64,000 nucleotides of DNA from Hyphomonadaceae bacterium (GCA_965229115.1 CBDDIR010000002.1:32410-96409), one strand, 5' to 3'. Shown: positions 29,615 through 49,107, counted from the first letter of the stretch. Notes: generated by a model from the sequence alone, not told the origin. Numbers and translations are program-made.

Positions 29615-30595
29615 TCAAACCGCCCGGAAGCGATCGAATGCCGTCAAATATCTGACCGGTGGATCGGCATCCCAGCGATAGATCTCTGTCCGCAGGAAAT
29701 GCAGCTCCTCATCGAGCTTCTCTTCCGGCAGTTCAACCCACCAGGATTTGGGGCGGCCGTCGGAACCGTCGGACCAGCGATAGCCACGCGCCTTGAGATG
29801 GTCCTTCATGTCAAAGGGGGAATTTTCAGCGTAGATGCGAACCCGCGACAGCTGGCTGGCCCGATAGAGTTCCGCAAATGGCGTCGAGGTCGAATCGAGC
29901 CGTGTCTGCCCGAGTACCTCCAACAGTGCGAAACAATCGTCCACTGCGCGGTGCCCATCGTGAAAATATCCCGACTGGCCGATCAAGTACCCGAGCTTGC
30001 TTCCCTCGAAACCGCGCGCCGACCAGTCGATCTCGGACACGGAGCAGGCCCATGCCTTATGGACGAAGATCGGCGAGAATGCCTCGCAGAAGGGCCGGTC
30101 GAAGCCAGCATTGTGAGCAATGACTAGGTCTGCCGGCTCGATAAGGAGCTTCAGACGGGCCAAGTCGATGACTTGGCCGGCGACCATGTCGTCGGTGATG
30201 CCGGTCAAGCGTGTGATTTCGGCCGAGATCGGATTCGTCGTTTGTTGAAGCCCACCATAGATGCCCGTGATGTCGCCAATCACACCCGCTTCGTTGAAGG
30301 TGAAGGCGATTACGCCGATTTCGATGATTTCGTCGGAGCGATGGTTGAGGCCGGTGGTTTCGGTGTCGAGGATCACGCCGCGGCGCCGGAATTCCTGCCG
30401 TGGGTGTTCGACGATCGGCCGCGGTAGAAGCTTTCGCAGGATACGGTAATTGCCGGTCGCTTCAAGTTGACGGGCCATCGCCTCGTCATCCAATCCGATG
30501 CCGTCCTGAACACCTTTTGCGACAACCTGTGGCCTAGCAACTCGCTCGGTAGCCGGCATAACAGGAGCTGCAAAGAAGTCGAGTTGCCGGGTCAT
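29615..30595 (-). CDS. DEDDh 3'-5' exonuclease (DnaQ/epsilon-like) with C-terminal extension
   Basis: ExoI motif VILDTETTGL, ExoII LVIAHNAGFDRPF, ExoIII HRAVDDCFALLEVL. The C-terminal KARGYRWSDG..KSWWVELP module follows. The start was chosen at MTRQLDFF (about 30595). Confidence 0.75.
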   Translation of the reverse strand: MTRQLDFFAAPVMPATERVARPQVVAKGVQDGIGLDDEAMARQLEATGNYRILRKLLPRPIVEHPRQEFRRRGVILDTETTGLNHRSDEIIEIGVIAFTFNEAGVIGDITGIYGGLQQTTNPISAEITRLTGITDDMVAGQVIDLARLKLLIEPADLVIAHNAGFDRPFCEAFSPIFVHKAWACSVSEIDWSARGFEGSKLGYLIGQSGYFHDGHRAVDDCFALLEVLGQTRLDSTSTPFAELYRASQLSRVRIYAENSPFDMKDHLKARGYRWSDGSDGRPKSWWVELPEEKLDEELHFLRTEIYRWDADPPVRYLTAFDRFRAV

Positions 30596-30696
30596 TGAAT
30601 TCCGATCCAATTGGCTTACGGAGCGCACAATACGCATCGACGTCGGAGCAAGCAACGACTGTGCCCAGCCAGGTTTCTTTCGCCGGCAGCGTGTGG

Positions 30697-31635
30697 TTAT
30701 GCCTCCGGCGCGTCGGATTGAGGGCCGATCAAATCTATCTCTGCGATCTTTTGAAACTCTCCCAGGTATTCCTGACGATGATGCGAAAGCCAGCGGCTGA
30801 CGCGTCCGTTCGCAAGTAGCTTGGCGACATATCCGCGCGCCACAGTGAGGTGCAGATTGTCGATGCCATAGGTTTCCTCGACGCTTTTCACTTGCGTCTG
30901 CAGGGCGGCCAGTTCCCGTTCCATTCGAGCAATCTGCTGACCTGATGGGGTGCCTGCAGCTGCACCTGTCACTTTTTTGGCAGTTACCAACTGGCTGTCA
31001 GGCGTAGCGGCGCGGATCGCTCGGGCGAACATGACGGTAAAATTGTGCTGACCAATCATCAAATCCGCCGCTTCGATCTGCCGAACGGCGGACATTTGCC
31101 GCAAGACATCGAACACCTTCATCGAGCATGGCGTATCCTTCAGCATCTCGGCCGCTTCGGGACTAATACCTTCCAGCAGCCGAAAGCGGCGAATGACGGA
31201 CTCCACCTGAAGGCCCAACGCGTCGGCTATGTCAGCAGAGGAAACGCCGCGCTCGATGGCGCGCGCTATCATCCTGTGCTCCTGGATCGGCGCCAGCCGG
31301 TTGACCCGCTTGTTATAGGTATAGGTGTCGTCGTCGGTGGCGATCAGGCACTCGACCTCCGCAATGCCGAGTTGCTTGAGTGCTTCCAGCCGCAGATGTC
31401 CATCGAGCAGGAACCAGGTCCCAGTATTCTGGGTGTTGGCGATGACGACCGGCGCCTCGACCAAGCCGATCGCCTTGATCGAGCTTAGAACCTGCGCGAA
31501 CTTTCTGCTTTCGCGAGCGCCGTCCGGGAGCGACTTAAGGGAAACGATCGCGGAAATCGGAAGCGTTCTTATGTCTCGGTCGAAGGCGAGTCGGATCCGC
31601 CCATCCCCATCGTTGTTGTCCGGCCCATCATTCAT
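30697..31635 (-). CDS. ParB-like N-terminal domain protein with RepB-C-like tail
   Basis: 312 aa with FLLDGHLRLEALKQLGIAEVECLI (ParB/Srx box). It overlaps the upstream ORF by 8 nt. Confidence 0.7.
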   Translation of the reverse strand: MNDGPDNNDGDGRIRLAFDRDIRTLPISAIVSLKSLPDGARESRKFAQVLSSIKAIGLVEAPVVIANTQNTGTWFLLDGHLRLEALKQLGIAEVECLIATDDDTYTYNKRVNRLAPIQEHRMIARAIERGVSSADIADALGLQVESVIRRFRLLEGISPEAAEMLKDTPCSMKVFDVLRQMSAVRQIEAADLMIGQHNFTVMFARAIRAATPDSQLVTAKKVTGAAAGTPSGQQIARMERELAALQTQVKSVEETYGIDNLHLTVARGYVAKLLANGRVSRWLSHHRQEYLGEFQKIAEIDLIGPQSDAPEA

Positions 31636-32530
31636 TGCGGCCTCCGGAAATCCGTGCGGTTAGCGCCCTTGGCATGGTCGCCAGTCCCTCGGCCCGCAGC
31701 AAATTGACGAATCCTTCGTCAGCGAGCAGATCTTTCAATGCCTCAACGATGAACAGAAGCCGTGTCTGTGTGAAATCCGACTTCTTGACCAGCAGACGCT
31801 GCTTTTCTGCCTCACGCTGATAGACCTGCATCAAGTCATGTGCCGTCATCCGGCGTCCGCCGCCCTTTCTACCAAGACGCCCTGCCGGCAAACCCTTGCC
31901 CTGCGCGCGCATGCGTATGTCGAGCATTCGCCTGACAGCGGCGAGTTTCTTTCCCCGCAGCTGACCGGCCTCGTATGCGTCGAGGAGCAGGTTCTGTGCC
32001 TCCTCCGTTTCCGCCCGAGAGATTTCCATCGCCAGCGTGATCGGGATGAGGCCTGTCTCCACAGCGGCGACGAGCCGTTCCTCTCCTTTTTCGAGAAGGG
32101 AGGCGATCATGTTGACCCATGACGAGCCGACGCCAATCTTCTCGGCAATGGCCGCGTCGGCGTATCCACGCGCTCTCAAGGCACCGATCTCGCGCATCAG
32201 GTCGATCGGCCGCGGCGTGCGTCGCGCTATATTTTCAACGAGACTCATCACAAGGCATTTGTCCTCGGCGGCCTCGATAACAACCGCCGGAATTTCGTTC
32301 TGACCGAGCATCTGGAATGCTTCCAAACGCCCTTCGCCGCACACCAGATCATATCGCGGACCACCGGGGCCATCGTGCCGGCTCACCGTGATGGGACGTT
32401 TGAGGCCTATGGCTTCGATATTGTTCACGATGTCGCGGTGCTGGCGCTTGTTACGGGCTCGTGGGTTGAGGACCGTGATGCGAGAAATCGGAATCATCTC
32501 GATCCGGTTCGGACGAAGGGCAGACATCAT
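31628..32530 (-). CDS. ParB N-terminal domain protein
   Basis: 300 aa with YDLVCGEGRLEAFQMLGQNEIPAVV and LVENIAR motifs. It makes an ATGA overlap with the recombinase stop. Confidence 0.75.
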   Translation of the reverse strand: MMSALRPNRIEMIPISRITVLNPRARNKRQHRDIVNNIEAIGLKRPITVSRHDGPGGPRYDLVCGEGRLEAFQMLGQNEIPAVVIEAAEDKCLVMSLVENIARRTPRPIDLMREIGALRARGYADAAIAEKIGVGSSWVNMIASLLEKGEERLVAAVETGLIPITLAMEISRAETEEAQNLLLDAYEAGQLRGKKLAAVRRMLDIRMRAQGKGLPAGRLGRKGGGRRMTAHDLMQVYQREAEKQRLLVKKSDFTQTRLLFIVEALKDLLADEGFVNLLRAEGLATMPRALTARISGGRNE

Positions 32531-34101
32531 GCGGCCTCTGGCAAGGGAACGGGTGTTGCGATTTGATAGAGAAGCTCAAGGTCGTCGAAACGATAAGCAT
32601 CGAGATGAAGAGCGTTGTCCTCCGACAGCCGCAACTTCTCGGAAAAAACGTCGATCCGCGGGAACAGATAATAGTCGAAGGGCGCCCGGTTAGCCGCATC
32701 CATGCGCACCACAACCGTGATGTCGGGACCGAGAGACGTATCAAAACGGAGTTTCCAGCGCAAAAGTCCTGTCGATGTCTGAAGGCAACGAGCAATGACC
32801 ACCGACAGCGTGAATTCCTGATTGACGATCACCCGATCGGTTTGCAGATCCTGCAAGGCGTCGCTGCCGGTGGCCCGCAATCTTTCCAGAACTTCACCGA
32901 CCACATCGGGATGGAGTTTGCGGAGCTCGCGGTTGGTTTCGACATAGCGGTAGTCCCGATCGGGGGTGAAGCCGACGAGACGATAGGCTCGAAGCAGGCT
33001 CCCGAAGCGCGCACTATAGGCGCTGCTGGACGGCATGCCGTCACATTCATCAATGACGATGCCGGAGAGCAACCCCTTTTGCCGGAAGAGGTCTCGCAAT
33101 GACTGCAACATCTCTTCATCGCTCAGGCGGAACGAGCGCGCGTTGATGATTGTTCTTGCCGCCTCGAAAAGCTCGCGCGCGACGACAGGCTCAAAAGCTC
33201 CCTCCGCCCTGATCCACATGTCGGGATCGTTCCGGACACGCTTTTTCTTCAGCTTGAACGAGCGGCGGTTCCAGACATTGTCGCCGGCATATTTCTCGTT
33301 GATCAGGACCTGGTGGACAGTTCCTCTCGTCCATGGACGGCCAAGGTCGGTCAGGATACCTCGGGCATTGAGATCGGCTGCAATCTGGCTCTCAGTTTTT
33401 CCATGGTGGACAAAGGCCCGGTAGACCTCGCGGACCAGGTTTACCTCCTCGACCGGCCCAGGTGTCAGAATGACGCGATCAGTCTGAATGCTCTTGTGCT
33501 CGCCGCGCTGCAGGACCGCTTTGACAGCGCCGTGTTCATCGATGAGGGTACGTCGCAGACCGAAGCCAGCAGGCCCGCCTTGGCGAAAACCCTTTTCGAT
33601 CAACCTGCCCTGTCCGGCGAAGACCTTCGTCGATAGCTCGCGGCTGTATTCGCCGGCCATCGCCCGTTTCACACCCTTGACGATCGTCGACACCGGGCTG
33701 CCGTCGTTTTCGAACTGCTCGGCGCAATATTGGACCGCGATACCGGCGCGCCGGCAAATATATTCGTAATAGGCGCTTTCGTCAGCATCCTGAAACCGTC
33801 CCCATCGGCTGACGTCGTAGACAAGAACGATGGTGAAGTCGGTGCCGCCGGCCTGCACATCCTCGATCAGTTGGCGGAGCGCGTCACGCCCCTCTATCTT
33901 GAGGCCACTCTTTCCTGCATCGGCGTAGGTTCTAACGATCTCGATTCCACGAGCTTCCGCATACTGGCGGATCGCGTCGGCTTGGTTTTCTGTCGAATAT
34001 TTTTGATGATCGGTCGACATGCGGACGTATTCGGCAGCGCGAACAGGACGCGCCGGCTGCGCTGACGATAGTTCTCTGTCGTAGGTTCCCCGGTTCGCCA
34101 C
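32527..34101 (-). CDS. Large serine recombinase
   Basis: The resolvase catalytic N-domain is AAEYVRMSTDHQKYSTENQ...VLVYDVSRWGRF, followed by the recombinase domain. The start was chosen at GTG 34099-34101 (AGGAAAGGG RBS). The track ORF extends to 34194. Confidence 0.85.
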   Translation of the reverse strand: MANRGTYDRELSSAQPARPVRAAEYVRMSTDHQKYSTENQADAIRQYAEARGIEIVRTYADAGKSGLKIEGRDALRQLIEDVQAGGTDFTIVLVYDVSRWGRFQDADESAYYEYICRRAGIAVQYCAEQFENDGSPVSTIVKGVKRAMAGEYSRELSTKVFAGQGRLIEKGFRQGGPAGFGLRRTLIDEHGAVKAVLQRGEHKSIQTDRVILTPGPVEEVNLVREVYRAFVHHGKTESQIAADLNARGILTDLGRPWTRGTVHQVLINEKYAGDNVWNRRSFKLKKKRVRNDPDMWIRAEGAFEPVVARELFEAARTIINARSFRLSDEEMLQSLRDLFRQKGLLSGIVIDECDGMPSSSAYSARFGSLLRAYRLVGFTPDRDYRYVETNRELRKLHPDVVGEVLERLRATGSDALQDLQTDRVIVNQEFTLSVVIARCLQTSTGLLRWKLRFDTSLGPDITVVVRMDAANRAPFDYYLFPRIDVFSEKLRLSEDNALHLDAYRFDDLELLYQIATPVPLPEAA

Positions 34102-34218
34102 GCTTCGCCCTTTCCTCGTTCCTGCCGGATCGGTCCGGGCAACTGACCGCCCCAGCGCACGACAACATCCCTGCCGCCTCCCGCGATATTGCAAGCTTAG
34201 CGGACGAAGGAGCGGAAG

Positions 34219-34848
34219 ATGTTGCCGAAAACGGGCAGGAAGCTGCCGGTGTGGAAGGGGGTTCTAGGCGGGCGTGACTTGTTGGCCCAGACCATCGCCG
34301 ATCTGTTGCGCAAGGAGCATGGCGACACCCATCGGGCGATCAAACAACTGATGAACCAGACAAACGCGAGCGAGCGGACGGTCAAGCACTGGCTGTCGGC
34401 ACAACATGCTCCGGACACATTGTTTTTCTTACGCCTTATGGTCTCCTCCCCCGTCATCCGCGCCTTTGTTCTGGGGCTGATCGAGGGCCCGGCTTCCAAT
34501 CCATTGTCGTCGGCACGCGATCGTCCTGTCCGTGCCGCTGCGCGGGAAGCCTATGCTGCCGGAGAAGCGGCCTTCAGCGCGCTAACAAAGGATGTACGGG
34601 AAAGTGGCCCTGAAAATGACCCTGATCGTGACCCTAAACATGACCCTGAACCCGTGGAGCTCAATGAACGTCAGCACTGGTTTCTTGAGCGTATCGTTGA
34701 CGGCGACCGCTACGGCGCCAAGGAGATAATGGCCATCTGGGAGGTCAGCCTGAAAACCGCGCGACGGGATATACGCGGCCTCCAACTCGCCGGATTACTG
34801 GCATATGTCGGTTCACGTCGAAGAGGTAGATATCGCTCTGTCCGTTGA
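34219..34848 (+). CDS. Putative HTH regulator, divergent from the serine recombinase operon
   Basis: GAAGGAG RBS. An N-terminal HTH-like segment (LMNQTNASERTVKHWLS) and a C-terminal wHTH-like segment (IMAIWEVSLKTARRDIRGLQLAGLL) are separated by an acidic/Pro linker. Confidence 0.5.
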   Translation: MLPKTGRKLPVWKGVLGGRDLLAQTIADLLRKEHGDTHRAIKQLMNQTNASERTVKHWLSAQHAPDTLFFLRLMVSSPVIRAFVLGLIEGPASNPLSSARDRPVRAAAREAYAAGEAAFSALTKDVRESGPENDPDRDPKHDPEPVELNERQHWFLERIVDGDRYGAKEIMAIWEVSLKTARRDIRGLQLAGLLAYVGSRRRGRYRSVR

Positions 34849-35015
34849 GGCTTCGCGATCGATGCTGAGCGCATTGGAAGGTCTTTAATGAATTCAAACC
34901 TGGGATAAGCCTGCTGCCAACTGATAGCTGTTGATAAATCGGCAATGTTCTACTTTTGTTCAGGCATAACGGTATCTCACGACCCTCGAACCGCCTAGGT
35001 TGGCACGATTCAGTC

Positions 35016-36746
35016 ATGGAGGCTTATTCGTTGCGGCTATTGAAAAGCTACGCTCCCCAATTTCCCGGCTTCGACCCTCTCGAAGCTGCGGTGGCCCAGT
35101 TGGCAAACGCGGGCATCGAGGAGCGCGGCGCCATCTTCACCCGCCGTGAGGTCGTTGACTTCATTCTTGACCTGTCCGGTTACACGATCGACCGGCCGCT
35201 GCACACTTTCCGTGTGTTGGAACCATCGTTTGGCGACGGCGATTTCCTGTTACCAATTATTGACCGCTTGCTGACATCTTTCCGCGAACACGCCGCTGAA
35301 CAGGATGTCGTCGTGGGCCTGAGAGCAGCGTTGCGTGGCGTGGAACTGCATCGTGTCACATTTGAGATGACCAAGGACCGCGTCATCGATTTGCTGTCCC
35401 AACGAGGAGTGCCTGAGCTGGCAGCACGAAGTCTCGCTGAGGCATGGCTCTCACAGGGTGATTTCCTTCTAGAGGATTTTGATGCGGCCTTTACGCATGT
35501 CCTTGGCAATCCGCCCTACGTGCGGCAGGAACTGATTCCCGACGAGCTCATGGCGGAATATCGTCGTCGCTACGCCACGATCTACGATCGAGCCGATATC
35601 TACGTACCCTTCATCGAGCATTCCCTGAAGCTCCTGGCACCCGGTGGTGCCCTTGGGTTCATCTGCGCCGATCGTTGGATGAAAAACCGCTACGGCACTC
35701 CGTTGCGCAAGATGATCGCCGATCACTACCACCTCAGGGTGTACGTGGATATGATGGATACGCCAGCATTTCATACGGAGGTAAGTGCCTACCCGGCGAT
35801 TTTCATCATCGGTAATGAGCATGGAAAAGCGACGCGTCTGTATCACCGACCCGAAATTTCGCGACCATTTCTAACGTCATTGGCAACTGCCCTTACAACT
35901 CCCGAGACTCCTGTTTTTTCTGGAGTTAGGGAAATACAGGCGTTGGCGCGAGGCGCCGAGCCGTGGGTGTTGGAATCCTTTGACCAACTGGCCGTTGTGC
36001 GCCGACTTGAGGCGTTGTTTCCGACATTGGAAGAAGCCGGTTGCAAGGTCGGTATCGGCGTCGCGACCGGCGCAGACAAGGTTTTCACCGGCGCGTTCGA
36101 TAAGCTTGACGTGGAAGACGACCGCAAGCTGCCGATGGCCATGGCGAAGGACATCCATTCAGGCCGGGTTGAATGGCACGGCAACGGCGTCATCAATCCC
36201 TTTGATGACAATGGCGGGCTTGTGCCACTTGAACGATATCCCCGCCTTGCCCGCTATTTTGAAAAGCATGGCGCGGAGATCAAGAGTCGCCATGTGTCGA
36301 AGAAGAATCCGATTAGCTGGTACCGAACGATCGACCGGATTTATCCGGATCTGACTCACAAGCCAAAGCTGCTGATCCCGGACATCAAGAGCGAAGCGAA
36401 TATTGTTTATGAGCGTGGGAAGCTCTATCCGCATCACAACCTTTACTATATTACATCCGACGACTGGGACATCCAGGCGCTACAGGCTGTTTTGCTGTCA
36501 GGAATTGCCCGTTTGTTCGTCGCCATTTACTCGACGAAGATGCGGGGTGGTTATTTGCGATTCCAGGCACAGTACCTGCGCCGGATCCGCGTGCCGCACT
36601 GGAGGGATGTTCCACTGGAGGTTCGGGAGGAGCTGATCAGTGCTGCGGAGGCGCTGGACATTCAGCGGTGCAATGAAGCGGTCTGTCACCTCTACCAGCT
36701 GAGTGCAGGAGAGCGGCAGGCCATGGGGGGAAATGGGACTTTTTGA
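35016..36746 (+). CDS. Type II N6-adenine DNA methyltransferase (Eco57I/TaqI-like gamma class)
   Basis: Motif I is [12 protein letters not shown] and motif IV is [11 protein letters not shown]. The start was chosen at [10 protein letters not shown] (ATG 35016). The stop overlaps the start region of the downstream endonuclease gene. Confidence 0.8.
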
Positions 36747-36748
36747 GA

Positions 36749-37486
36749 ATGGCGCTTGATTTAGTTGATTACGAAAAGAAGGCCCTTGAGGCTACGATGG
36801 CATTCTGGGGCAATCGGGAGAAGGCACGGCAAAAGCAGATCGAGGCCGGACGCGCTGACCAGGGCGAGCGCGCGGGAGTTACCGCTGGCAAAAACATGGA
36901 TGGCTTCCTCGCCTTGCTCATCGATATCGTGGAGGCGAACGGGCTGACGAACGCCACCATTCATCAACAGCGCGCCGTTCTGACGTTGCCTGGCTACTTC
37001 CGGCCGACCAAGTTGTGGGACGTTCTGGTGGTGCAGGACAAACGACTTGTCGCGGCGATCGAGCTCAAGAGCCAGGTGGGGCCATCTTTTGGCAACAACT
37101 TCAATAACCGCACGGAAGAGGCGATTGGCACGGCGCACGACCTTTGGACGGCCTATCGCGAAGGCGCGTTCGGCAAACATCCACGACCGTTTGTCGGATG
37201 GATGATGATGGTGGAAGACGCGCCGGAATCACGCCGCCCGGTAACCGATCGCTCGCCGCACTTCCCTGTCTTCAAGGAATTTCAAGGTGCGTCTTATCTC
37301 AAGCGCTACGATGTTCTCTGCCAGCGCCTTGTTCAGGAACAGCTCTACGGCGCAGCTGCTCTGTTGACGTCGCCACGGACAGCTGCGGCGACGGGCGAGT
37401 TCCATGAAATGTCCGAGCTTACGAGCCTCAAGACGTTCGTGACGACTCTCGCTGGACACGTGGCGGCAGTCGCCGCTCAAGGCTAA
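36749..37486 (+). CDS. Type II restriction endonuclease, PaeR7I/XhoI-family-like
   Basis: About 245 aa. The segment [16 protein letters not shown]...[32 protein letters not shown] is recognised from memory as the PaeR7I family core. It is coupled to the upstream methylase. Confidence 0.6.
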
Positions 37487-37690: not shown

Positions 37691-38713
37691 TCAGGCCTTC
37701 TTGACGTCTACGGACACTTTCACAACATTATAAAGGGATACGTTTCCACCCGCAGCCTTGCCCGGATCAAACAATGCTAAGTTAAACCCCTCACTGACCG
37801 AGCTACGGTAAATGACGCCGTCGAATCCGCTCCTTTTTATGAATTCGCAAAGGTATTGGCTGGGTATGTAATCGATTGCCGCGCCCTGAGGAAGAACTGG
37901 CCGCGTTAGCTCCTCGCCGAGACGCTCCAGGAAAGGAAGATCAGCTCTAAGCTGGCCGATCTCGCTTGCATCGGAAAGGATAAAAGGAGACACCAGCTTG
38001 CGAGGGTGTCGCAAGTCAACTGCTCGTATGTTCGGAACAAAAAATTCTGCGACGCACGCTACCTCGCCTGTATGAGGACGCACTTCCGAAGCTGCCGTAT
38101 CTGGCAGTGATCCGAGATAGAGATACGGAATGCCAGCAGGGTTCGCTCTGCCATGCGAGGTCCTTCTCTTGGGAGGCGGTCCCATTTTGTCTATCGTGAA
38201 AGTCTCGTCATCTGTCCGGATGCGTGCTCTAAACCATTGCTCCGGCAATTCGGGAGCCAGCAATAAATCGAGCAGTTGACGAAGCCGGGCCTCATCAATG
38301 GTGACGTCTAGAAACCAACGATTCCTATACATCATCTCATCGCGCAACGTCTCCCACTTAGCCAGGCCCTCGCTCACATAGCTCGAAGACGGAACAAAAC
38401 GGTGGCGCACGACATCGCCGTTGTCGAGGATCTCGCCAAGCAGCTCTTTCGCATGGGCTAAGTCCATGGTGTGATGGGTAAAAAGCTCCCAGTCTTCCTT
38501 CATCCACTCGACAAGCGACTTTCCATTTTCTCGCGGCTCGTAGACGTTTACTAAGAGTTCGAACCAGGGCGAAAGCTGATTTGGCTCGACCAACAGAACG
38601 TCATCAGTTCCGCAGAAACTGCACTTTCCCTTGGCTGGGTTCAACGTAGGAAAAATGTCATCGCGAAGACCACGATCGTCAAAGCACTCCGGGCAGCAGT
38701 ATCTCTTCTCCAT
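37691..38713 (-). CDS. RES-domain protein with N-terminal CxxC..CxxC zinc-ribbon module
   Basis: The N-terminus is YCCPECFDD...GKCSFCGTD. The RES triad context is HGRANPAGIPYLYLG (R), AASEVRPH (E) and GVIYRSSVSEGFNLALF (S). The gene starts 8 nt after the upstream stop. Confidence 0.75.
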   Translation of the reverse strand: MEKRYCCPECFDDRGLRDDIFPTLNPAKGKCSFCGTDDVLLVEPNQLSPWFELLVNVYEPRENGKSLVEWMKEDWELFTHHTMDLAHAKELLGEILDNGDVVRHRFVPSSSYVSEGLAKWETLRDEMMYRNRWFLDVTIDEARLRQLLDLLLAPELPEQWFRARIRTDDETFTIDKMGPPPKRRTSHGRANPAGIPYLYLGSLPDTAASEVRPHTGEVACVAEFFVPNIRAVDLRHPRKLVSPFILSDASEIGQLRADLPFLERLGEELTRPVLPQGAAIDYIPSQYLCEFIKRSGFDGVIYRSSVSEGFNLALFDPGKAAGGNVSLYNVVKVSVDVKKA

Positions 38714-38721
38714 GGTCAGGC

Positions 38722-39657
38722 TCAGCCGAGAAACGCCGCCAGAGTTTCGATGTGGTGCTTCATACTCAGCTTTTTGACATAACCAAGTCCCGGGAAGTGC
38801 CCTTTCGCGTATAGGTCTCGGAATTCCGTGATCGCGCTGGTTTCGAGGAGCTTCGAATCCCCGCCTTCGAGTTTTTTGATTAGTTTTGCCAGAGCTTGTC
38901 CGAACTTGCCCGCCGGGTCCGTCGGAGTGCTATTCGTGTCCGAAACGAAATGGTAGATATACATGACATTGTCTTTGTCGGGGTCGATAAACGTAAGGTG
39001 GATTGCCACAGCGTAAGCGGGCCCGCCGCCTTCACTGTAGGCATCGCCGACCGTAAGAAAATCGCCGAACCCAGCCATGCCAAGCTCGCCATATGTGACA
39101 TGAAGGTCTGAGAACTCTTCGACAGGCGGATAGTCTGCATTCTTTTGGCGGTTAAAGCCGTCCCTGATAAGAACACGCTCGCCCGCACTAAAATGCTTCC
39201 AGTAGAGCAGCTTAGAGTGGCTATCGACGAACACGTTGGACATGCCGGGCAGTTCGGCACCGAATGCGGTAGCCAGCGCTTTCGGCTCAGTAAAGCCTGC
39301 GTGGACAAATACCGGATAATGATCAGCATGAGCGTGATAGCACGCAATTGCATCATCGACCGTCATGCTACTGCGCAACAAGATACCCGCAGCAACGGCG
39401 TCGTTACCGATGTATCCCTCTCTGAGCAGTTTCGTGATGTTAGCCCCATCCTCTTGGTGGTCACCATGATAAGGATTGATGATGACGACCGCCTGGCTTC
39501 CAGCATCACTTAGCGCTTTCAGGGCCTTCTCGAGGCCCCCAAGCGCCTCACGCACCGGCTCGATGATCGGAATAAAACCGCTTGATGCCAACAACGGCGC
39601 GGTTTCCCGCAACGTTATGAGTTCAAACTGCTTCCCACGAAAATACGGACGATACAC
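38722..39657 (-). CDS. sce7725 / T4 Beta-protein-like family protein
   Basis: GTG start 2 nt after the upstream stop. The N-terminal (M)YRPYFRGKQFELITLRE is recognised from memory as the sce7725/Beta_protein family signature. 311 aa. Confidence 0.5.
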   Translation of the reverse strand: MYRPYFRGKQFELITLRETAPLLASSGFIPIIEPVREALGGLEKALKALSDAGSQAVVIINPYHGDHQEDGANITKLLREGYIGNDAVAAGILLRSSMTVDDAIACYHAHADHYPVFVHAGFTEPKALATAFGAELPGMSNVFVDSHSKLLYWKHFSAGERVLIRDGFNRQKNADYPPVEEFSDLHVTYGELGMAGFGDFLTVGDAYSEGGGPAYAVAIHLTFIDPDKDNVMYIYHFVSDTNSTPTDPAGKFGQALAKLIKKLEGGDSKLLETSAITEFRDLYAKGHFPGLGYVKKLSMKHHIETLAAFLG

Positions 39658-39659
39658 TC

Positions 39660-40550
39660 TCAGCTCCAGGCCATCGCGATAGAAAGCGGCGTCTCGACGG
39701 CTTCGACCAACTTGATGTGTTCGGAGCGCTTGACGGGAATCGATATTGCCGCAGCCTGCAATGACTCGGGAAGTTGGTCAACAAGTTCAACCAGAGGAGT
39801 TAGGTTTCGAGTCCGCTTTAGTGTTCTAACCATCTCATTGTGAAGTATGCTGGGATCGAGATCGGCGAAAATCGTCCGAAGCGCGCCGTGAAGTTGGGTA
39901 TTCGGCACTTGTGGTATCTCCCGACCTAGCGCCTTAAGAATCGCTGCGGCTTCTGCAGACCGGAGAGATTCAAAAACAGTCTGCGGGCAAACCCTATCCG
40001 GACGATTGACGCCTTCGCGTTCCGTGGAAATTTGGTACCGCTTGGATAGGCATAAGACGCCTGTGTCTTCTGGCACTGCCGCGAGCACCCCCTCCACGTG
40101 ATCTTCGCTCGCAATCACGTTGACCTTCGCGAACACCTTTTTATAGTTCGCGACTTGGTTCGACAGCCTGGCCAACGAGTCCCGCTCAGACTTTATTTCG
40201 TAGACCGTCGCCGTCCCGTTAAGGATAACAAGATCTGCTTTGCAGGTCCCTGCACGGAATTCAGTTAGCATAGAGGCGGTGCGGAGCGAATGCGTGCCCA
40301 TCAAAATCTTATGGCTGATGGCGCTGCGGTAAATGTACTCATTGCGCTGCCCTGATACCCGCAGCACGGCGAATGCACGATCGAATGCGTCACCGACGCT
40401 CGCGCCGGCATCGCACAAACCCGCTAGCCCGACCTCGTCGGCCAATCGCCGGAATAGTCCCGAGCGCCCTTTCTTCGCCATTTCCCGAAAAACGGCTGAT
40501 GAGAATAGGCGCGACAAGACCACTAGCTCTGTTTTGTTGTTTCGTGCCAA
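39660..40550 (-). CDS. PD-(D/E)xK nuclease-fold protein, sce7726-like
   Basis: The core is MLTEFRAGTCKADLVILNGTATVYEIKSERDSLARL (E..D..ExK). The start is uncertain: TTG 40548-40550 with an AGGAAA RBS was chosen, with alternatives GTG 40628 and ATG 40481. Confidence 0.55.
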   Translation of the reverse strand: MARNNKTELVVLSRLFSSAVFREMAKKGRSGLFRRLADEVGLAGLCDAGASVGDAFDRAFAVLRVSGQRNEYIYRSAISHKILMGTHSLRTASMLTEFRAGTCKADLVILNGTATVYEIKSERDSLARLSNQVANYKKVFAKVNVIASEDHVEGVLAAVPEDTGVLCLSKRYQISTEREGVNRPDRVCPQTVFESLRSAEAAAILKALGREIPQVPNTQLHGALRTIFADLDPSILHNEMVRTLKRTRNLTPLVELVDQLPESLQAAAISIPVKRSEHIKLVEAVETPLSIAMAWS

Positions 40551-40967
40551 TTCCGATTTCCTAGAGCGGCGCAATGGGTGACATTGTACAAGCCGCGCCC
40601 CTTCGGCGATATCGCCAAAATAGCGCACCTGAGATTTAATATGCCGCAGTTGGGATCAACCCGATGGCCAATCAAGACAGGCAACCGTGATCTCGGAATT
40701 GGCAACACGAAGCGCAGGCTTTGGGTAACTATGGCGAACAAAATCGGGGCCCCGAGGCCTTAACCTCGCCGGTAGGCCAAACGGGTTGCTTACTTTCGTT
40801 GATAAAGTAGTCGAACCTTCGGTTGAGATCTTGTCCATCGCCGAGAACACTCTAACGTGGCGGGATGAACTGTGGCCGTGTCGGCAGAACGACGCCGCGG
40901 CGCTGGTTGATTGATTTATATGACTTCGGCCTGGCAGGTATTGGCCCAGGATGTAAGCAGGATCGAG

Positions 40968-42047
40968 ATGACGTTTTTTCAGCAGAAGATCGAAAAGTGG
41001 CTGTTCAGAGAGGTCCCTGAGCGCGCGGTATCGCAGCCCTACGATCTTCCTGCGGTGGTGTTGACGACGGATGTCGGATTACAGCGGACCGAAAACCAGG
41101 ATCGCGTGGCCGCGTTTTCAATAGACGGCCCGAATGGAGATCGGCTTAAAGTCGTCGCGGTAGTCGATGGTATGGGAGGTATGCGTGATGGAGCAAAATG
41201 CGCCACGCTCGCTCTGACCAGCTTCTTTACTGGGCTCGCATCGTCTCGCGGTCACATCCAACAAAGAGCATATCGGGCGATATCGCTCGCCAACGACACC
41301 GTCTTCAAGTTCGCCGGCGGAAAGGGGGGCGCAACGCTTTCCGCTATTGTTATGGATAGCCGGGGGACGGCATACATCGTCCATCTCGGCGACAGTAGAG
41401 TGTACAGCTTCGGACACAACTCACGCGTCGAACGTCTTACGAAAGATGACTCGCTGGCCGAGGCCGTTGGCGGACATGGCCGAGAGCTCCTTCAGTTCGT
41501 CGGAATGGGTCCGGAAATGCAGCCCTTCCTGAGCGAGGTCCCAAAAGAAACGAGGAATCTAGCTATCACAAGTGATGGCATTCATTTCATTGAGGCGCCG
41601 ACACTGCAGAGTGTGCTTCTCAACTCGTCAACTATCCGAAGCGCCGCCGAGCGACTCGCCGCCTTAGCGCGCTGGTGCGGCGGGCCCGACAACGCTTCTG
41701 GCGCATTCATAGACCTGCCGTTGCTTGCCCAGGAAATACATTCACCATCGTTAGTTAGCGCTCAGATTTGGGACCCATTCGGTAGTCTCAGTTTTAATAT
41801 GGAACCGGACGATCCCGGTGAATTGAGCAATTTCCACCAAAAGCCACTGCAAAATTTCGAGGGCGAAAACGAAGCAAAAAGTCCGCACCTTGACGACAAA
41901 AAATCGCCCCGCGATCCCCAGGTTCAGCGCGGCACGAAAAAGAATACTAAGCGGAAGAAAAAAGAAAGTGTCCCCAAACAGGACATACAGCTCGAAATAA
42001 AAATTGAGGGGAACTCGGGGGAAGAGAACGGTGATAATCGCCAATAG
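40968..42047 (+). CDS. PP2C-family Ser/Thr phosphatase
   Basis: Motifs are RTENQDR, VVDGMGGM, HLGDSRVY, ITSDGI and GGPDNAS, followed by a Lys-rich C-terminal tail. The start was chosen at ATG 40968 (AGGA RBS). The track ORF starts at 40911. Confidence 0.8.
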   Translation: MTFFQQKIEKWLFREVPERAVSQPYDLPAVVLTTDVGLQRTENQDRVAAFSIDGPNGDRLKVVAVVDGMGGMRDGAKCATLALTSFFTGLASSRGHIQQRAYRAISLANDTVFKFAGGKGGATLSAIVMDSRGTAYIVHLGDSRVYSFGHNSRVERLTKDDSLAEAVGGHGRELLQFVGMGPEMQPFLSEVPKETRNLAITSDGIHFIEAPTLQSVLLNSSTIRSAAERLAALARWCGGPDNASGAFIDLPLLAQEIHSPSLVSAQIWDPFGSLSFNMEPDDPGELSNFHQKPLQNFEGENEAKSPHLDDKKSPRDPQVQRGTKKNTKRKKKESVPKQDIQLEIKIEGNSGEENGDNRQ

Positions 42048-43080
42048 GTACCAGCCGACAGGAAATACCGACGCGGGGGGCATGGGAGAAATCTTGGAAT
42101 GCGTCGACCTTCACCTGAAACGGCGGGTGATCGTGAAACGATTACAGCTGGGCATTGACGAAAGACGCTTGCTCGATGAGCAAAAAGCGCTGGCTAAAGT
42201 GCGGTCCAAGCATGTTGTGCAACTCCACGACATTGTAGAGCTCGGTTCGGGCAAAAAATCAGAAAAAGCGATCGTGCTTGAGTACATCGACGGCAATAAT
42301 CTCGCCATCGGTGCGTTCGCACCCGATCGCACCTACCTCGGTGTAATTTGGCAGATCGCTTGCGGATTGCGAGATATCCATGACGCGGGAGTCATTCACC
42401 GCGATATCAAACCTAACAATATCCGTCTCGATAAAGAAGGCGTGGTCAAGATCATTGATTTTGGACTCGCCCGCTCACGAGACGAGGCGAAGACACGAGG
42501 GGTGGTTGGCACCCCAGTTTTTATGGCGCCAGAGCTTTGGGGCAGCGACACGGTGAGCTTCAACAATTCAATAGACGTCTACGCATTCGGTGTGACCGCC
42601 CTCGCCCTACTGAACCAGAGGGTTCCGACAGAACTCGGAAGCATGCCGCCCAAACCAGTGTCTGTCCCCGCGCTGATCAGCGCCTTTCCGAAAATACCCA
42701 ATGAGATCATGGCCGTCCTCGTTTCTTGCCTTGACCATGCACCATCTCGCCGTCCGACGATGGCGACAGTTCAGAAAATAATCGAACGCCGGCTGCTCGA
42801 GAACGAGCATCGCGCACTTGTAGTGATGGATGGGAACATACACCATCTTGATAGTAAAAGACGCAAAATAACACTTAATGCCGGCTCCGTTGGATCGATA
42901 GCTATCGAATACAATGGCTACGAATTTGTTATTGTAACCGTAAGCGGCAGTGTCTTCATTAATAACACCGTAGCAAAGACAGGAACTTCGATGCCAGGTT
43001 GCTGTGTGATTACATTCGGAACCGGATCGAACAGACGGTTCGTCACTTTTGACGTCTCACATCCAGAGGTTATGCCATGA
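42031..43080 (+). CDS. Ser/Thr protein kinase with FHA-like C-terminal domain
   Basis: GTG 42031 overlaps the phosphatase stop. The Gly loop is TDAGGMGEI, with VIHRDIKPNNI, IIDFGLA and FMAPE. The C-terminal SGSVFINNTVAKTGTSMPGCCVITFG..RFVTFDV resembles a degenerate FHA beta-sandwich (weak). Confidence 0.8.
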   Translation: MIIANRYQPTGNTDAGGMGEILECVDLHLKRRVIVKRLQLGIDERRLLDEQKALAKVRSKHVVQLHDIVELGSGKKSEKAIVLEYIDGNNLAIGAFAPDRTYLGVIWQIACGLRDIHDAGVIHRDIKPNNIRLDKEGVVKIIDFGLARSRDEAKTRGVVGTPVFMAPELWGSDTVSFNNSIDVYAFGVTALALLNQRVPTELGSMPPKPVSVPALISAFPKIPNEIMAVLVSCLDHAPSRRPTMATVQKIIERRLLENEHRALVVMDGNIHHLDSKRRKITLNAGSVGSIAIEYNGYEFVIVTVSGSVFINNTVAKTGTSMPGCCVITFGTGSNRRFVTFDVSHPEVMP

Positions 43081-44147
43081 ACGTGGGGGACGAGATTTCA
43101 AACCGATATCGGGTTACAGACACGATTGGTAGCGGCGGCATGCAGGACGTTTACCTAGCCGAGGACCAACTACTTGGCGTTGACGTCGCGCTTAAGACGC
43201 CTCAGCCTGGACAACAGAACAAGCGCTTCTCCCAAAGTGCAATCATAGCTGCCAAAGTTAACCACCATAATGTTGCAAAGACGCTTGATTACGTCGAGGA
43301 AAATGGGCGGCTTTATCTTATTGAAGAGTATGTGCCCGGCGAAACGTTGGACCATAAACTGAACCGTTTTGGCGCGGTGGATCCCCATCTGGCAGCAAGA
43401 GTTTTTCATCACCTCTCTAAAGGCGTGGCGGCATCCCATCACGCCGGCGTTGTGCATCGTGATCTCAAACCGAGCAACGTGATTGCTGAACCTGGCGTCA
43501 ATCTGCACCATTTAAAAATCACTGATTTCGGAATTGCCACGCTGACCGCTGAGGTCTTTGCTGACGCTGCGAAAGATGGCGACCTAACCCGATCGACGTC
43601 GGGAACCATCAGGGGCGCGCTACCCTTCATGGCGCCTGAAATGATGTTTCGTGCCCCCGGCGACCATCCCGGCCCAGAAGCGGACATTTGGTCCCTCGGG
43701 GCGATGATGTTCAAAGTTATGACCGGTATCTATCCGTTTGGTGTCTACCTCCAAGCCGCGGTAAATGTGCAAACCCGCAATCGTGCTCCATGGCCAAGCT
43801 TTATGACAATCAACGCCCAATACAAGCCTCTCGCCATAGAATTGCAGTCGATCGTTGAGGCGTGCCTTTCATATGACCCTGAAGACCGACCAACAGCCGA
43901 CGATCTCGTTCGTCAAATTTCCGGAGTTTGCTACATCAATGTTCATCGAAGTGAAGGGGTGATCAATAATCTTATTCAGAACGGATACAGTGGCTTTATA
44001 GATGAAGGTGCTGATCCCGTCTTTTTTAGCATGGAGAGCGTGTACGGAGAACGGCGTCCGGCGGTCCGAAGCAACAATCGCGTATGCTATTCGAAGTTTC
44101 CCGGCTCTCCAAGACACCGGGGTCATCCTATTGTAGTTATCGACTAA
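43077..44147 (+). CDS. Ser/Thr protein kinase with cold-shock/OB-like C-terminal domain
   Basis: It makes an ATGA overlap with the upstream kinase. Motifs are IGSGGMQDVY, VALK, VVHRDLKPSNV, ITDFGIA and FMAPE. The C-terminal EGVINNLIQNGYSGFIDEGADPVFFSMESV resembles a CSD (GxVKxFxxxKGFGFIxxxxxDVFxH). Confidence 0.85.
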   Translation: MNVGDEISNRYRVTDTIGSGGMQDVYLAEDQLLGVDVALKTPQPGQQNKRFSQSAIIAAKVNHHNVAKTLDYVEENGRLYLIEEYVPGETLDHKLNRFGAVDPHLAARVFHHLSKGVAASHHAGVVHRDLKPSNVIAEPGVNLHHLKITDFGIATLTAEVFADAAKDGDLTRSTSGTIRGALPFMAPEMMFRAPGDHPGPEADIWSLGAMMFKVMTGIYPFGVYLQAAVNVQTRNRAPWPSFMTINAQYKPLAIELQSIVEACLSYDPEDRPTADDLVRQISGVCYINVHRSEGVINNLIQNGYSGFIDEGADPVFFSMESVYGERRPAVRSNNRVCYSKFPGSPRHRGHPIVVID

Positions 44148-44218: not shown

Positions 44219-45172
44219 CTATGCTACGTCCCTTCGCCCAGCTGTTTCACTTTTAGGCTGCCAGAATTTAACCCAAACTAAGAGGCGACTCATCCAATAG
44301 GTTGAACGACGGCGTGGCAATTCAGTCTCTACCTTCGGAAATTCATCTTTGACGAGATCGACAAGTTGCCGAACATCGAACTTAGGGTCACCTACGGCGG
44401 TGGACGGATAATGAGGGCATGGCTTATCTGCTCTCCTGCGAAAACGCTCGGATGCCACCATTGTACCTTCGTTCGCGTCATAGGCAAAATATGCTGACCG
44501 CGCCGGCTTTCCGTGCCATGGCGTAAACAATTGAACAAGCAAACCGACGGCCGCAGAGGCTAGGACTCCGTTGGGCCACACGACCTGGGGTTTGCTGCCT
44601 GCCTCTCCGTATCGACCTGCCTCGTCAGCTAGAGCATTGTCAGTCACGATCCCAAGGCAGCGTAGGCAGGGAGCGCCGGGGGAAGACAGCACAACTTGTC
44701 CTGCAACCAGAAACTCATCACGCTCACCGAGACGATGCACGTCCATTCCCATGTCAATGTAAGGGATCAGGAAACGCCGGCAGAATGCTTCGAGTTCGCT
44801 CTTGGCAATGATGCGGTCAACACCGCCAACGACGATGTCACAAATCCGGAGCTTGTCTGCAACCTCTTGCCATTTAGCCTTGTGGCAGGATACGCGGGCA
44901 TTTGGATTGACGCTCATGATCACGCGTTTGGATATTTCTGTTTTAGCACGTCCTTCGGCGACATCTGCCCACGTTCCGCCAACCAGCCGATTGAGGTTGC
45001 TATCGGAGATCACGTCGTCATCGATGAGGACAAACCCGCCAATACCCAGATGTGCCAACTGCTGAACGACATGCGAATTGCCGCCGCCAAGGCCAACAAG
45101 ACCCACAGTTAGATCGTTGAGATTTTGAGTGCTATCTTCTCCCAGGAAGCTCTGCCGATCCTGCCAAGTCAT
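44219..45172 (-). CDS. bilD: ThiF/E1-like adenylyltransferase (Bil-like system E1)
   Basis: The Rossmann/E1 signature is VGLVGLGGGNSHVVQQLAHLGIGGFVLIDDDVISDSNLNRL, plus a CLRC motif. It is the last gene of a four-gene ATGA-coupled operon. Confidence 0.7.
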   Translation of the reverse strand: MTWQDRQSFLGEDSTQNLNDLTVGLVGLGGGNSHVVQQLAHLGIGGFVLIDDDVISDSNLNRLVGGTWADVAEGRAKTEISKRVIMSVNPNARVSCHKAKWQEVADKLRICDIVVGGVDRIIAKSELEAFCRRFLIPYIDMGMDVHRLGERDEFLVAGQVVLSSPGAPCLRCLGIVTDNALADEAGRYGEAGSKPQVVWPNGVLASAAVGLLVQLFTPWHGKPARSAYFAYDANEGTMVASERFRRRADKPCPHYPSTAVGDPKFDVRQLVDLVKDEFPKVETELPRRRSTYWMSRLLVWVKFWQPKSETAGRRDVA

Positions 45173-47724: not shown

Positions 47725-49107
47725 GTGGGGTTCGTTGTCTACGATTTGGAAACGAGCGGACTCCACAAGCGTTTTGATCAAATTCTGCAGTTCGCGGCCA
47801 TACATACCGACGACGAGCTGGAGCCGATAGATACCCCTCTGCACATTCGAGCCCGACTTCTTCCGAGCATTCTGCCGTCCCCGAAGGCGTTGCTCATTAC
47901 GGGTCTTACTATCGAGGAGATCATAGACCCCACCGTACCGTCACTTTACAACGCGGTTTGCGAAATTCATGAGGCTTTTCTCCGGTGGAGCCCCTCCATG
48001 TATCTGGGATTCAACTCCATACGTTTCGACGAGGAGTTCCTTCGCCAGGCGTTCTATCAAAACTTACGGCACCCGATTTACGTCACGAGTATCAATAACA
48101 ATCGTGGTGACGTCTTAAGGCTTGCTCGCGCCGTCGCGCTCCTCAACCCCGGCGCTCTCACAATACCTCTAACCCCCGAGGGCCGGCGATCTTTTCGGCT
48201 ATCAGATATCGGCCAAGCAAACGCCATTCATTTCGACCGGAGCCACGATGCCCTCTCTGACGCGCAGACGACCCTAGCGCTGTGCCGACTTATCCGAGAT
48301 CGCGCTCCCGACGCGTGGTCGAGCTTCTCCAGGTTCGCAAACCGCCGGAATGTAGTGGAGTTTGTTCAAGAGGAGGAAGCTTTCGCACTCTTGGACGATC
48401 GGGCCGACAGTGACTTCGTCTGCGTCACGCTCGTTAGCAAACATCCGACCGACCGGAACTTACACTATTGCCTCGATTTGGCGACGGATATGGATTCGCT
48501 GGGTCGGCTTTCGAACGAAGAGCTTTGTGCCGAGGTAAGTCGCCGTGACGGACCAATCCGAAAGTTGCGGGCGAATGCATCTCCCATCATGGCCCAACTC
48601 TGGGAACTGGAAGACCAAAGTCTGCTGCCCGCGCCTTCCCAAGACATTGAGCGCGTGGCTCAGAGAGTTCGTTCTGACGAGGAGTTTTTGCAAAGGTTGT
48701 CGACCGCAATCCAGGCAAGCCAACCGGTCTGGCCGACCTCTGAGCACGTCGAAGAGCAAATCTACGAAGACTTCATCGGTGATGCAGACGGAGCACTATG
48801 TCAGCAATTTCATCTCGCACAGTGGCCGGAGCGCCCGAACTTCATCGGTAGGTTCGGAGATCGGCGACTGCAACGGCTCGCACAACGGCTGCTTCTGCAC
48901 GAGCGGCCCGACCTACTAGATCAGCACCGCCAATCAGCACTCCTTGTCGAGGTCCAACGAAGGCTGGATGGATCGATCACCGACGCGCCATGGACCACAC
49001 TGCCAAAAGTGGAAGCCGAGATCCAAGCTCTGTCAGCCGAATGTTCCGAACGCGATCGACGCATACTGGACGGTTTCAGCAAGTATTTAGCCAACCGGTT
49101 TCCTTAG
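47725..49107 (+). CDS. Exodeoxyribonuclease I (SbcB)-family 3'-5' ssDNA exonuclease
   Basis: 460 aa. VVYDLETSGL, LGFNSIRFDEEFLRQAFYQN and HDALSDAQTT are the DEDDh motifs. Collinear similarity to E. coli ExoI includes QIYEDFIGDADGA (ExoI: QLYNGFFSDADRA). It starts 13 nt after the immA-like stop. Confidence 0.8.
   Translation: MGFVVYDLETSGLHKRFDQILQFAAIHTDDELEPIDTPLHIRARLLPSILPSPKALLITGLTIEEIIDPTVPSLYNAVCEIHEAFLRWSPSMYLGFNSIRFDEEFLRQAFYQNLRHPIYVTSINNNRGDVLRLARAVALLNPGALTIPLTPEGRRSFRLSDIGQANAIHFDRSHDALSDAQTTLALCRLIRDRAPDAWSSFSRFANRRNVVEFVQEEEAFALLDDRADSDFVCVTLVSKHPTDRNLHYCLDLATDMDSLGRLSNEELCAEVSRRDGPIRKLRANASPIMAQLWELEDQSLLPAPSQDIERVAQRVRSDEEFLQRLSTAIQASQPVWPTSEHVEEQIYEDFIGDADGALCQQFHLAQWPERPNFIGRFGDRRLQRLAQRLLLHERPDLLDQHRQSALLVEVQRRLDGSITDAPWTTLPKVEAEIQALSAECSERDRRILDGFSKYLANRFP

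Follow-up and report, generated by a model that had tools for sequence, protein, structure and literature searches.

We describe a compact three-gene operon in a 64,000-nucleotide stretch of DNA from a Hyphomonadaceae bacterium (GCA_965229115.1, CBDDIR010000002.1:32410-96409; the whole stretch is called the window here and all positions count from its first letter). The operon encodes a sce7726-family protein, a sce7725-family protein and a protein that joins a zinc ribbon to a RES domain. The first protein belongs to the same family as cII of satellite phage P4, and the third resembles the anti-phage aRES proteins in domain architecture. We consider it probable that these three genes (the trio) form a single operon for abortive-infection-type anti-phage (anti-mobile-element) defence. 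An earlier note on this DNA, made from the sequence alone, had suggested such a function and proposed a survey of gene neighbourhoods as a check; in this survey the trio proved to be strictly co-conserved as an operon across phyla, in mobile-element and defence contexts.

Gene layout of the operon

The longest open reading frames (ORFs) of the trio all lie on the minus strand: ORF1 at 39660-40628 (322 amino acids, aa), ORF2 at 38722-39657 (311 aa) and ORF3 at 37691-38713 (340 aa). They are co-directional, transcribed in the order sce7726, sce7725, RES, and separated by gaps of 2 nt and 8 nt, exactly as the earlier note had placed them. The true start of ORF1 is probably the TTG at 40550, and the GTG at 40628 is less likely, because homology across 80 related loci begins near residue 30 (counted, like all ORF1 residues here, from the GTG), the family has a median length of 295 aa, and the TTG is preceded by a well-spaced AGGAA Shine-Dalgarno sequence 7 nt upstream, yielding a 296-aa protein. 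Gene 1 would then span 39660-40550.

The third gene encodes an aRES-like protein

ORF3 matches the Pfam RES family PF08808 with 66.8 bits (3e-18; cut-off 23.2 bits). The RES domain comprises residues 175-318 (37760-38191, minus strand), as delimited by the Pfam envelope, the invariant alignment columns and the predicted fold. Residues R189, E210 and S304 of this domain are invariant in the family, as are N191, Y199, R212 and N311. The RES/ADP-ribosyltransferase (ART) fold of the C-terminal domain is confirmed at the level of the structural model, whose top Foldseek matches are MbcT (6FKG, E = 4.6e-4), NatT (8QNL) and the Pseudomonas putida RES protein (6GW6). Sequence and profile searches of the PDB with ORF3 gave nothing useful beyond a single weak profile match to the ParT RES toxin (6D0I), in which the GR-N-G...Y segment is aligned.

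The N-terminal domain (about residues 1-170; 38204-38713, minus strand) starts with a zinc ribbon of the CxxC...CxxC type, formed by C7, C10, C31 and C34 and followed by a helical region. C10, C31 and C34 are invariant, and C6 and C7 nearly so (at least 90%). Both the RES triad and the invariant ribbon cysteines hold even with stand-alone relatives at 23-30% identity in the alignment. The AlphaFold2 model is confident over residues 1-110, with a predicted local distance difference test score (pLDDT) of 86-95, and a Foldseek search of the PDB with this domain returned no match. While all 46 members of the family alignment match RES, 14 of the 46 also match PF18870 (HEPN/RES N-terminal domain 1) at E <= 0.05. 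A Bacillus cereus relative scores 28.7 bits, above the PF18870 gathering threshold of 27.4 bits, and the RES protein of a Moraxella trio matches at E = 1e-4. Judged by its relatives and its cysteine pattern, the N-terminal domain of ORF3 is probably a divergent HEPN/RES-NTD1-like domain.

Stand-alone, full-length relatives of ORF3 are found in Bacillus, in Citrobacter/Klebsiella/Enterobacter and on Acetobacter plasmids; homology to the enterobacterial and Bacillus proteins spans the zinc-ribbon region. One of them, a stand-alone 457-aa PF18870 plus RES (aRES-like) gene on the Citrobacter freundii IncF plasmid p2084-2 (5983-7356), adjoins genes for ParB, umuDC, a DNA methylase and ArdA, and many enterobacterial conjugative plasmids are similar. 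We interpret this site as the plasmid leading region, an unexpected place for an NAD+-depleting defence gene. An exact-sequence look-up of ORF3 itself in the collection used retrieved no record.

The architecture of ORF3 recalls that of aRES, stand-alone anti-phage proteins composed of PF18870 and RES domains (Osterman et al., January 2026 preprint, bioRxiv 10.64898/2026.01.28.702374). These are defined by a length of 300-600 aa, a RES domain and PF18870 at an hhsearch probability above 80%, occur in about 4% of genomes and are 'not operonically associated' (10.64898/2026.01.28.702374). Members from E. coli, Klebsiella and Enterobacter confer resistance to diverse phages; they are non-toxic alone until infection, and phosphorolyse NAD+ to nicotinamide and ADP-ribose-1''-phosphate (ADPR-1''-phosphate), with growth arrest (10.64898/2026.01.28.702374). 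Phages counter them with the phosphatase NARP1-AP and with aRad1, a protein that blocks the active site (10.64898/2026.01.28.702374).

The first and second genes belong to the sce7726 and sce7725 families

ORF1 is a member of the NCBIfam family NF033832 (sce7726_fam), with 182.2 bits (E = 8.7e-54) against a curated cut-off of 70 bits. It also matches the PADLOC model 'cll' (PDLC02989) at 2.8e-18, the sole PADLOC match within the trio. Residues E123, D132 and E144-x-K146 are invariant in 50 aligned sequences, four P4-type cII proteins among them, and represent a classical PD-(D/E)xK pattern.

ORF2 belongs to NF033831 (sce7725_fam; curated cut-off 60 bits) with 345.3 bits (E = 4.3e-103), residues 2-310 aligning with positions 1-312 of the profile, and phrog_34524 matches it at 2.7e-111. 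The family assignments of the earlier note for all three proteins were thus recovered by profile searches, and the motifs it had quoted are all present, those of ORF1 and ORF3 corresponding to residues that alignment shows to be invariant in the families.

The AlphaFold2 model of ORF2 (pLDDT 84, predicted template modelling score 0.86) has alternating beta and alpha elements and predicts a TIM-barrel-like alpha/beta fold. Foldseek gave weak, generic TIM-barrel matches only (E >= 3e-3, template modelling (TM) score 0.3-0.4), UV-damage and AP endonuclease-type barrels among them, and no specific relative or close solved structure. Across the sce7725 family, sampled as 125 representatives from 1,153 clusters at 50% identity, nine residues are invariant: N61, N173, D199, H220, H236, S239, L291, K295 and H302. 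Such conservation points to an enzyme more than to a protein that binds passively.

The only strong structural match of ORF2 is BFVD entry A0A5J6TRS2 (E = 4.9e-8, TM 0.63), an uncharacterised 379-aa protein of Gordonia phage Powerball. Its membership of the β family could not be established, and P4 β did not turn up in the BFVD search with the ORF2 model.

The trio is conserved as a unit

ORF2 and ORF3 each have thousands of close homologues, located on shared contigs. In a scan of one genome per species, 336 species encode an ORF2 relative, and we examined the neighbours of the best 80 (59-90% identity). In 80 of these 80 genomes, which cover Alpha-, Beta- and Gammaproteobacteria, Actinomycetota, Terriglobia and Planctomycetota, the sce7726 gene lies directly upstream and the RES gene directly downstream on the same strand. 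Gaps of at most 10 nt or gene overlaps occur in nearly all of these loci and suggest translational coupling. No conserved additional gene is seen in the 80 loci, nor is a methylase or other self-protection gene conserved with the trio.

The association extends to more distant relatives. The full trio is present in 13/13 IMG/VR viral contigs, and a divergent metagenomic clade (34-41% identity) has sce7726 in 54/54 and RES in 54/56 loci with enough flanking sequence. Over the whole sce7725 family as sampled, RES accompanies 147 of 149 informative loci. The trio was also found on a Shinella plasmid, a Moraxella plasmid (sce7725 34% identical), a Salmonella integrative and conjugative element (ICE) and a gut phage contig. 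Conversely, no member of the ORF3-type RES clade (at least 53% identity) was seen without the sce7726-sce7725 pair. One divergent query run against metagenomes found nothing.

The three proteins also co-diverge. Their pairwise distance matrices over 71 loci correlate at r = 0.89-0.91 (mirror-tree; Mantel p = 0.001), so that the three genes are passed on as one unit. The flanking genes vary and include guaA-adjacent sites, integrases, type IV secretion system genes, transposases, GajA/OLD, AriA, mad3 and AbiEii-like ATPases, which fits a self-contained mobile cassette. Among complete E. coli genomes, 19 of 5,426 carry the trio; the island that holds it in strain MS 115-1 is bounded by an integrase and also contains relaxase remnants, insertion sequence elements, the remnant of a type I restriction system and a KwaB-like gene.

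Several loci depart from the general pattern. The only well-flanked sce7726-sce7725 pairs lacking RES are two metagenome contigs that represent one element (L151 and L181, 5001-10193). Here, 140 nt beyond the pair, come genes for an AAA_15 plus OLD-TOPRIM ATPase and a UvrD helicase, a Gabija-type pair that may act as an alternative effector or may belong to a separate, adjoining system. In an Enterococcus faecium plasmid and a Listeria 'phage' contig (4992-5957), a Firmicute sce7725 gene at 31% identity has no detectable sce7726 or RES gene beside it and is flanked by genes for an unassigned 229-aa protein and a GNAT acetyltransferase. Two loci (L042 and L043) differ from three others (L009, L014 and L024) by distances of 0.08-0.18 for RES and sce7726 and of about 0.30 for sce7725, a pattern that suggests occasional recombination swapping the middle gene inside the cassette. 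In four further loci (L036, L037, L065 and L070) tblastn covers RES partly (e.g. residues 1-253, 145-337, 6-131 and 1-278) despite the sequence being present, and the effector gene may be frameshifted or decaying there.

The first gene is related to cII, and the second probably to β, of satellite phage P4

The gop-β-cII cassette of P4 is a validated anti-phage system that protects E. coli against λ and P1 (Rousset et al. 2022, PMC9122126). Gop is toxic without β, and gop/β was first described as toxin-antitoxin-like (PMC9122126). The toxicity of the cassette is triggered by the phage accessory gene orf184 (10.1101/2023.04.06.535777).

The P4 record annotates cII as a sce7726-family protein and β as a beta-family protein. 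P4 cII scores 151.4 bits on NF033832, more than the cut-off of 70 bits, and BLASTP aligns it with ORF1 at 29% identity (E = 3e-11). On these scores, P4 cII is a bona fide member of the sce7726 family. P4 β scores 191 bits on the Pfam family Beta_protein (PF14350), and it does not match the sce7725 model NF033831. A comparison of the two families by hhalign was not significant with a shallow sce7725 alignment. With diverse sce7725 representatives it reached a probability of 79.7% (E = 1.5e-5) over 219 collinear columns, in which the invariant YxPxxRx[KR]xxE and G-D motifs of both families align together. Reciprocal hidden Markov model (HMM) scores were 20.5 and 15.1 bits, compared with 6.5 and 3.1 bits for composition-shuffled controls. 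We regard sce7725 as a probable, not a proven, remote homologue of P4 β.

The earlier note had recognised the N-terminus of ORF2 as that of 'T4 Beta-protein'. The β protein belongs to satellite phage P4 and not to T4 (some UniRef names read 'T4 beta protein') and the Pfam family is not matched directly; the relation is a remote and probable one. The note had further held that the sce7725/sce7726 pair has no experimentally assigned function. This has to be corrected, as P4 cII is of the sce7726 family, β is a probable remote homologue of sce7725, and gop-β-cII is validated (PMC9122126).

Gop and the small ORFs at its position in the β loci of Pseudomonas, Methylibium and Acinetobacter are mutually homologous. 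Gop-type proteins are about 110-160 aa long, with two hydrophobic helices and a coiled coil. Pairwise BLAST of ORF3 against Gop finds no similarity, and the ORF listing of the window contains no Gop-like ORF. The idea that Gop is a homologue of the ORF3 zinc-ribbon domain, which came from a weak 'mobilome CxxC' match of Gop, was rejected, since Gop, with its two hydrophobic helices and coiled coil, contains no more than one cysteine and is not similar to ORF3.

One Logan contig (L098, 298-1605) carries a divergent sce7725 gene followed by a convergent sce7726 gene, i.e. the arrangement of β and cII in P4, with a partial small ORF upstream. It may represent an evolutionary intermediate between the two cassette types.

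Genomic context in the window

Between about 30 and 49 kb the window has a GC content of 52-57%, compared with 60-65% in the flanks, and the trio lies inside this region. The earlier note had placed the trio in a lower-GC island between a type II restriction-modification (R-M) pair and kinase/Bil operons, and both the GC scan and the neighbour searches agree. On one side is a mobile-element backbone with the R-M pair (29615-37486): an RNase T-type exonuclease, two ParB/RepB-type proteins, a large serine recombinase and a helix-turn-helix protein are followed by an Eco57I-type methylase gene (34956-36746), which overlaps that of its R-M partner, an XhoI-type endonuclease (36743-37486), by 4 nt. 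On the other side the plus strand encodes a PP2C phosphatase and then two Ser/Thr kinases with overlapping genes (40911-44147). The trio is thus flanked by the XhoI-type R-M pair and the PP2C/kinase operon, and the element that carries it also encodes a serine recombinase and ParB/RepB proteins.

The kinases match the PADLOC models PD-T4-6 and mad6 at 1e-38 to 1e-53. In Rhizobium sp. CFBP 8762, which has the closest relative of the trio, a PP2C gene likewise adjoins it, and the trio and the PP2C/kinase operon may therefore travel together. Further along, an E1-like protein (44219-45172, minus strand) has weak PADLOC E1-E2 matches (best 5e-13), and an SbcB-like exonuclease (47725-49107, plus strand) matches the 'RTasSbcB' (DRT-associated) model at 3.5e-97. 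Both may likewise serve defence in this island.

The divergent intergenic region that separates gene 1 from the PP2C gene (40551-40910, no strand assigned) is the presumed promoter region of the operon. No sigma-70-like site was detected on its minus strand, and the promoter and terminator scan as a whole gave no more sites than shuffled sequence. An Rfam search of the region had no match.

Discussion

Proposed mechanism

We infer an anti-phage function for the operon, NAD+ phosphorolysis by ORF3 and individual roles for genes 1 and 2. Upon activation, the RES domain of gene 3 would phosphorolyse NAD+ to nicotinamide and ADP-ribose-1''-phosphate, and the loss of NAD+ would starve the infected cell and arrest its growth. 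Genes 1 and 2 would act as a control module that senses infection and/or gates the RES effector. The sce7725 protein could hold the effector in check or license it, by analogy with the neutralization of Gop by β, and the sce7726 nuclease-like protein could sense or process an infection cue, e.g. foreign DNA or a phage protein. The cassette would then be a system of the P4 gop-β-cII kind in which a cytoplasmic NAD+-depleting effector takes the place of the small membrane toxin Gop. A nuclease/sensor pair wired to an NAD+-depleting effector, as the earlier note had pictured it, is a reasonable inference.

The ORF listing and the neighbour searches agree with the earlier note that no Xre/MbcA (DUF2384/COG5642)-type antitoxin gene adjoins the trio, whose sole neighbours are the XhoI-type endonuclease and PP2C genes. 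The conclusion drawn there, that the RES protein must be restrained in some other way, need not hold. An external antitoxin for ORF3 is not logically required, because the aRES proteins, which it resembles in architecture, are non-toxic alone until infection. The N-terminal domain of ORF3 may be sufficient for restraint, as in aRES.

A number of observations weigh against an integrated defence operon as outlined above. Since aRES proteins work alone, genes 1 and 2 may be dispensable for the control of RES. The hmmscan of ORF3 itself reaches no threshold for PF18870 and stays below detection. The PD-(D/E)xK fold of ORF1 is read from motif conservation only, and PDB sequence and profile searches with ORF1 gave no relative. 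ORF2 has no Pfam match at E <= 0.1, Beta_protein included, and no PADLOC β match; its pairwise BLAST comparison with P4 β finds nothing, and the hhalign probability of about 80% in local mode falls to 4.7% in global mode. Support for homology between sce7725 and β is moderate. The P4 cassette has the order gop, β and then a convergent cII, a layout shared by the Pseudomonas, Methylibium and Acinetobacter β loci, unlike the co-directional trio. Finally, the flank survey gives pooled gene lists without a background set, so that we claim no statistical enrichment next to defence genes.

Alternative explanations

The self-sufficiency of aRES, together with the description of these proteins as 'not operonically associated' (10.64898/2026.01.28.702374), raises the question whether the trio consists of two independent modules that travel together, an autonomous aRES sensing through its own N-terminal domain and a separate two-gene nuclease-based system. 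Co-transcription would then serve co-transfer or layered immunity (e.g. a back-up against aRES inhibitors), and not cross-regulation. Full-length stand-alone ORF3 relatives in Bacillus, in Citrobacter/Klebsiella/Enterobacter and on Acetobacter plasmids are compatible with such independence, and so are the pair without RES in L151/L181 (next to the Gabija-type pair) and in L098 (convergent) and the functioning of the β-cII pair with an unrelated toxin. The presence of RES in 147 of 149 informative sce7725 loci, the short gaps or overlaps that suggest translational coupling, the co-divergence at r of about 0.9 and an RES clade (at least 53% identity) never seen without the pair nevertheless make this unlikely.

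A bolder version of the integrated defence operon, which we put forward tentatively and as a whole, regards β/sce7725 and cII/sce7726 as two enzymes, each with catalytic-looking residues that stay invariant over more than 1,000 clusters at 50% identity. Together they would form an unrecognised sensing or licensing module over interchangeable effectors, which would be the membrane protein Gop in loci of the P4 type and an NAD+ phosphorylase of the aRES type in the trio. Such a module might gate an otherwise autonomous aRES or guard it against phage aRES inhibitors, and might work through a catalytic step, for example by processing DNA ends or by turning over a nucleotide or a metabolite similar to ADPR-1P, and not through simple antitoxin binding.

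Doubts are greater for a tripartite toxin-antitoxin addiction module that stabilises the carrier plasmid, ICE or island by post-segregational killing or persistence and has no role in phage defence. The RES toxins count among the classical type II toxins, the top structural matches of ORF3 are MbcT, NatT, RES-Xre and ParT, and gop/β was itself first described in toxin-antitoxin terms (PMC9122126). The trio resides on plasmids and ICEs, with the copy in the window lying beside ParB/RepB and recombinase genes. Yet a DNA-binding antitoxin gene is absent, ORF3 has an aRES-like two-domain architecture whereas the toxins of such modules measure about 150-180 aa, the cassette is frequently located on chromosomes and next to bona fide defence genes, and related systems built of the same parts have demonstrated anti-phage activity. 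Very improbable, finally, is a DNA-targeting restriction-like or repair system in which the work is done by the PD-(D/E)xK protein together with the TIM-barrel protein, the latter possibly a phosphoesterase resembling Endo IV/UVDE, and RES ADP-ribosylates a macromolecule and does not deplete NAD+. The invariant PD-(D/E)xK motif, the weak resemblance of ORF2 to UV-damage and AP endonuclease-type barrels and the place of RES within the ART superfamily (PMC9503650) could be read in this way, but the characterised RES enzymes are all NAD+ phosphorylases or NADases, the Foldseek matches of ORF2 (E >= 3e-3, TM 0.3-0.4) are non-specific, and the variable flanks include no methylase or self-protection gene conserved with the trio.

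Novelty and implications

In the literature searched the trio is nowhere named, and sce7725 and sce7726 occur solely in annotation lists. The earlier note had considered the system absent from existing catalogues. In part this is so, as PADLOC-DB v2 has no model for ORF2 or ORF3, but the effector resembles aRES in architecture (10.64898/2026.01.28.702374). Each component of the trio has an experimentally characterised relative, and the trio is not a new category of system. Its novelty lies in an effector of the aRES type that is obligately coupled, within one operon, to a β/cII-like pair and stands where P4 has the membrane toxin Gop. The PADLOC and DefenseFinder rule, which we take to require gop, beta and cll together, would not call the trio locus.

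The NCBI 'sce7725/sce7726 pair' turns out, in nearly all sampled cases, to be part of a three-gene cassette whose effector is a RES protein, and can be redefined accordingly. The trio can be tied to two validated systems: cII (and probably β) connects it with gop-β-cII, and the effector connects it with aRES. It thereby offers a second angle, by comparison, on the unexplained β and cII proteins. It also raises the question why the aRES clade of ORF3 is never found without the pair, given that aRES works alone. Resolving it would reveal how gating of NAD+-depleting effectors, or their shielding from phage counter-defences such as aRad1 and NARP1-AP, is achieved. The trio is directly testable in a native E. 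coli host, with 19 complete genomes to choose from, including strain MS 115-1.

Comparison with known systems

Compared with aRES, ORF3 probably has a similar combination of a HEPN/RES-NTD1-like N-terminal domain with RES; it shares a length (340 aa) within 300-600 aa, the conserved R/E/S residues and a defence-island setting, and the chemistry expected for it is the same. In contrast to aRES, which are defined as stand-alone, the ORF3 gene is always third in a sce7726-sce7725-RES operon within its own clade. Its N-terminal domain is too divergent for PF18870 by hmmscan, and it is only 23-30% identical to the stand-alone relatives retrieved.

With the toxin-antitoxin systems RES-Xre, MbcT-MbcA, NatT-NatR and ParS-ParT, whose toxins consume NAD+, ORF3 has the RES catalytic domain and fold in common. 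The trio differs from these type II systems in that no Xre/MbcA-type antitoxin gene adjoins it and ORF3 has an extra N-terminal domain of about 170 aa; its partners are a PD-(D/E)xK-motif protein and a TIM-barrel-like protein, and the RES gene comes last.

Like P4 gop-β-cII, the trio is a three-gene cassette on mobile elements with one gene, the third, of the toxin-effector type; ORF1 and cII share the NCBIfam family sce7726, and sce7725 and β are probable remote homologues. The effectors are unrelated, Gop being a small two-helix protein and ORF3 a 340-aa cytoplasmic RES protein. As judged from sequence comparison, the two cassettes thus appear to share two of three components and to differ in the effector and in gene order, which suggests that gop-β-cII-type and trio cassettes constitute one superfamily with swapped effectors.

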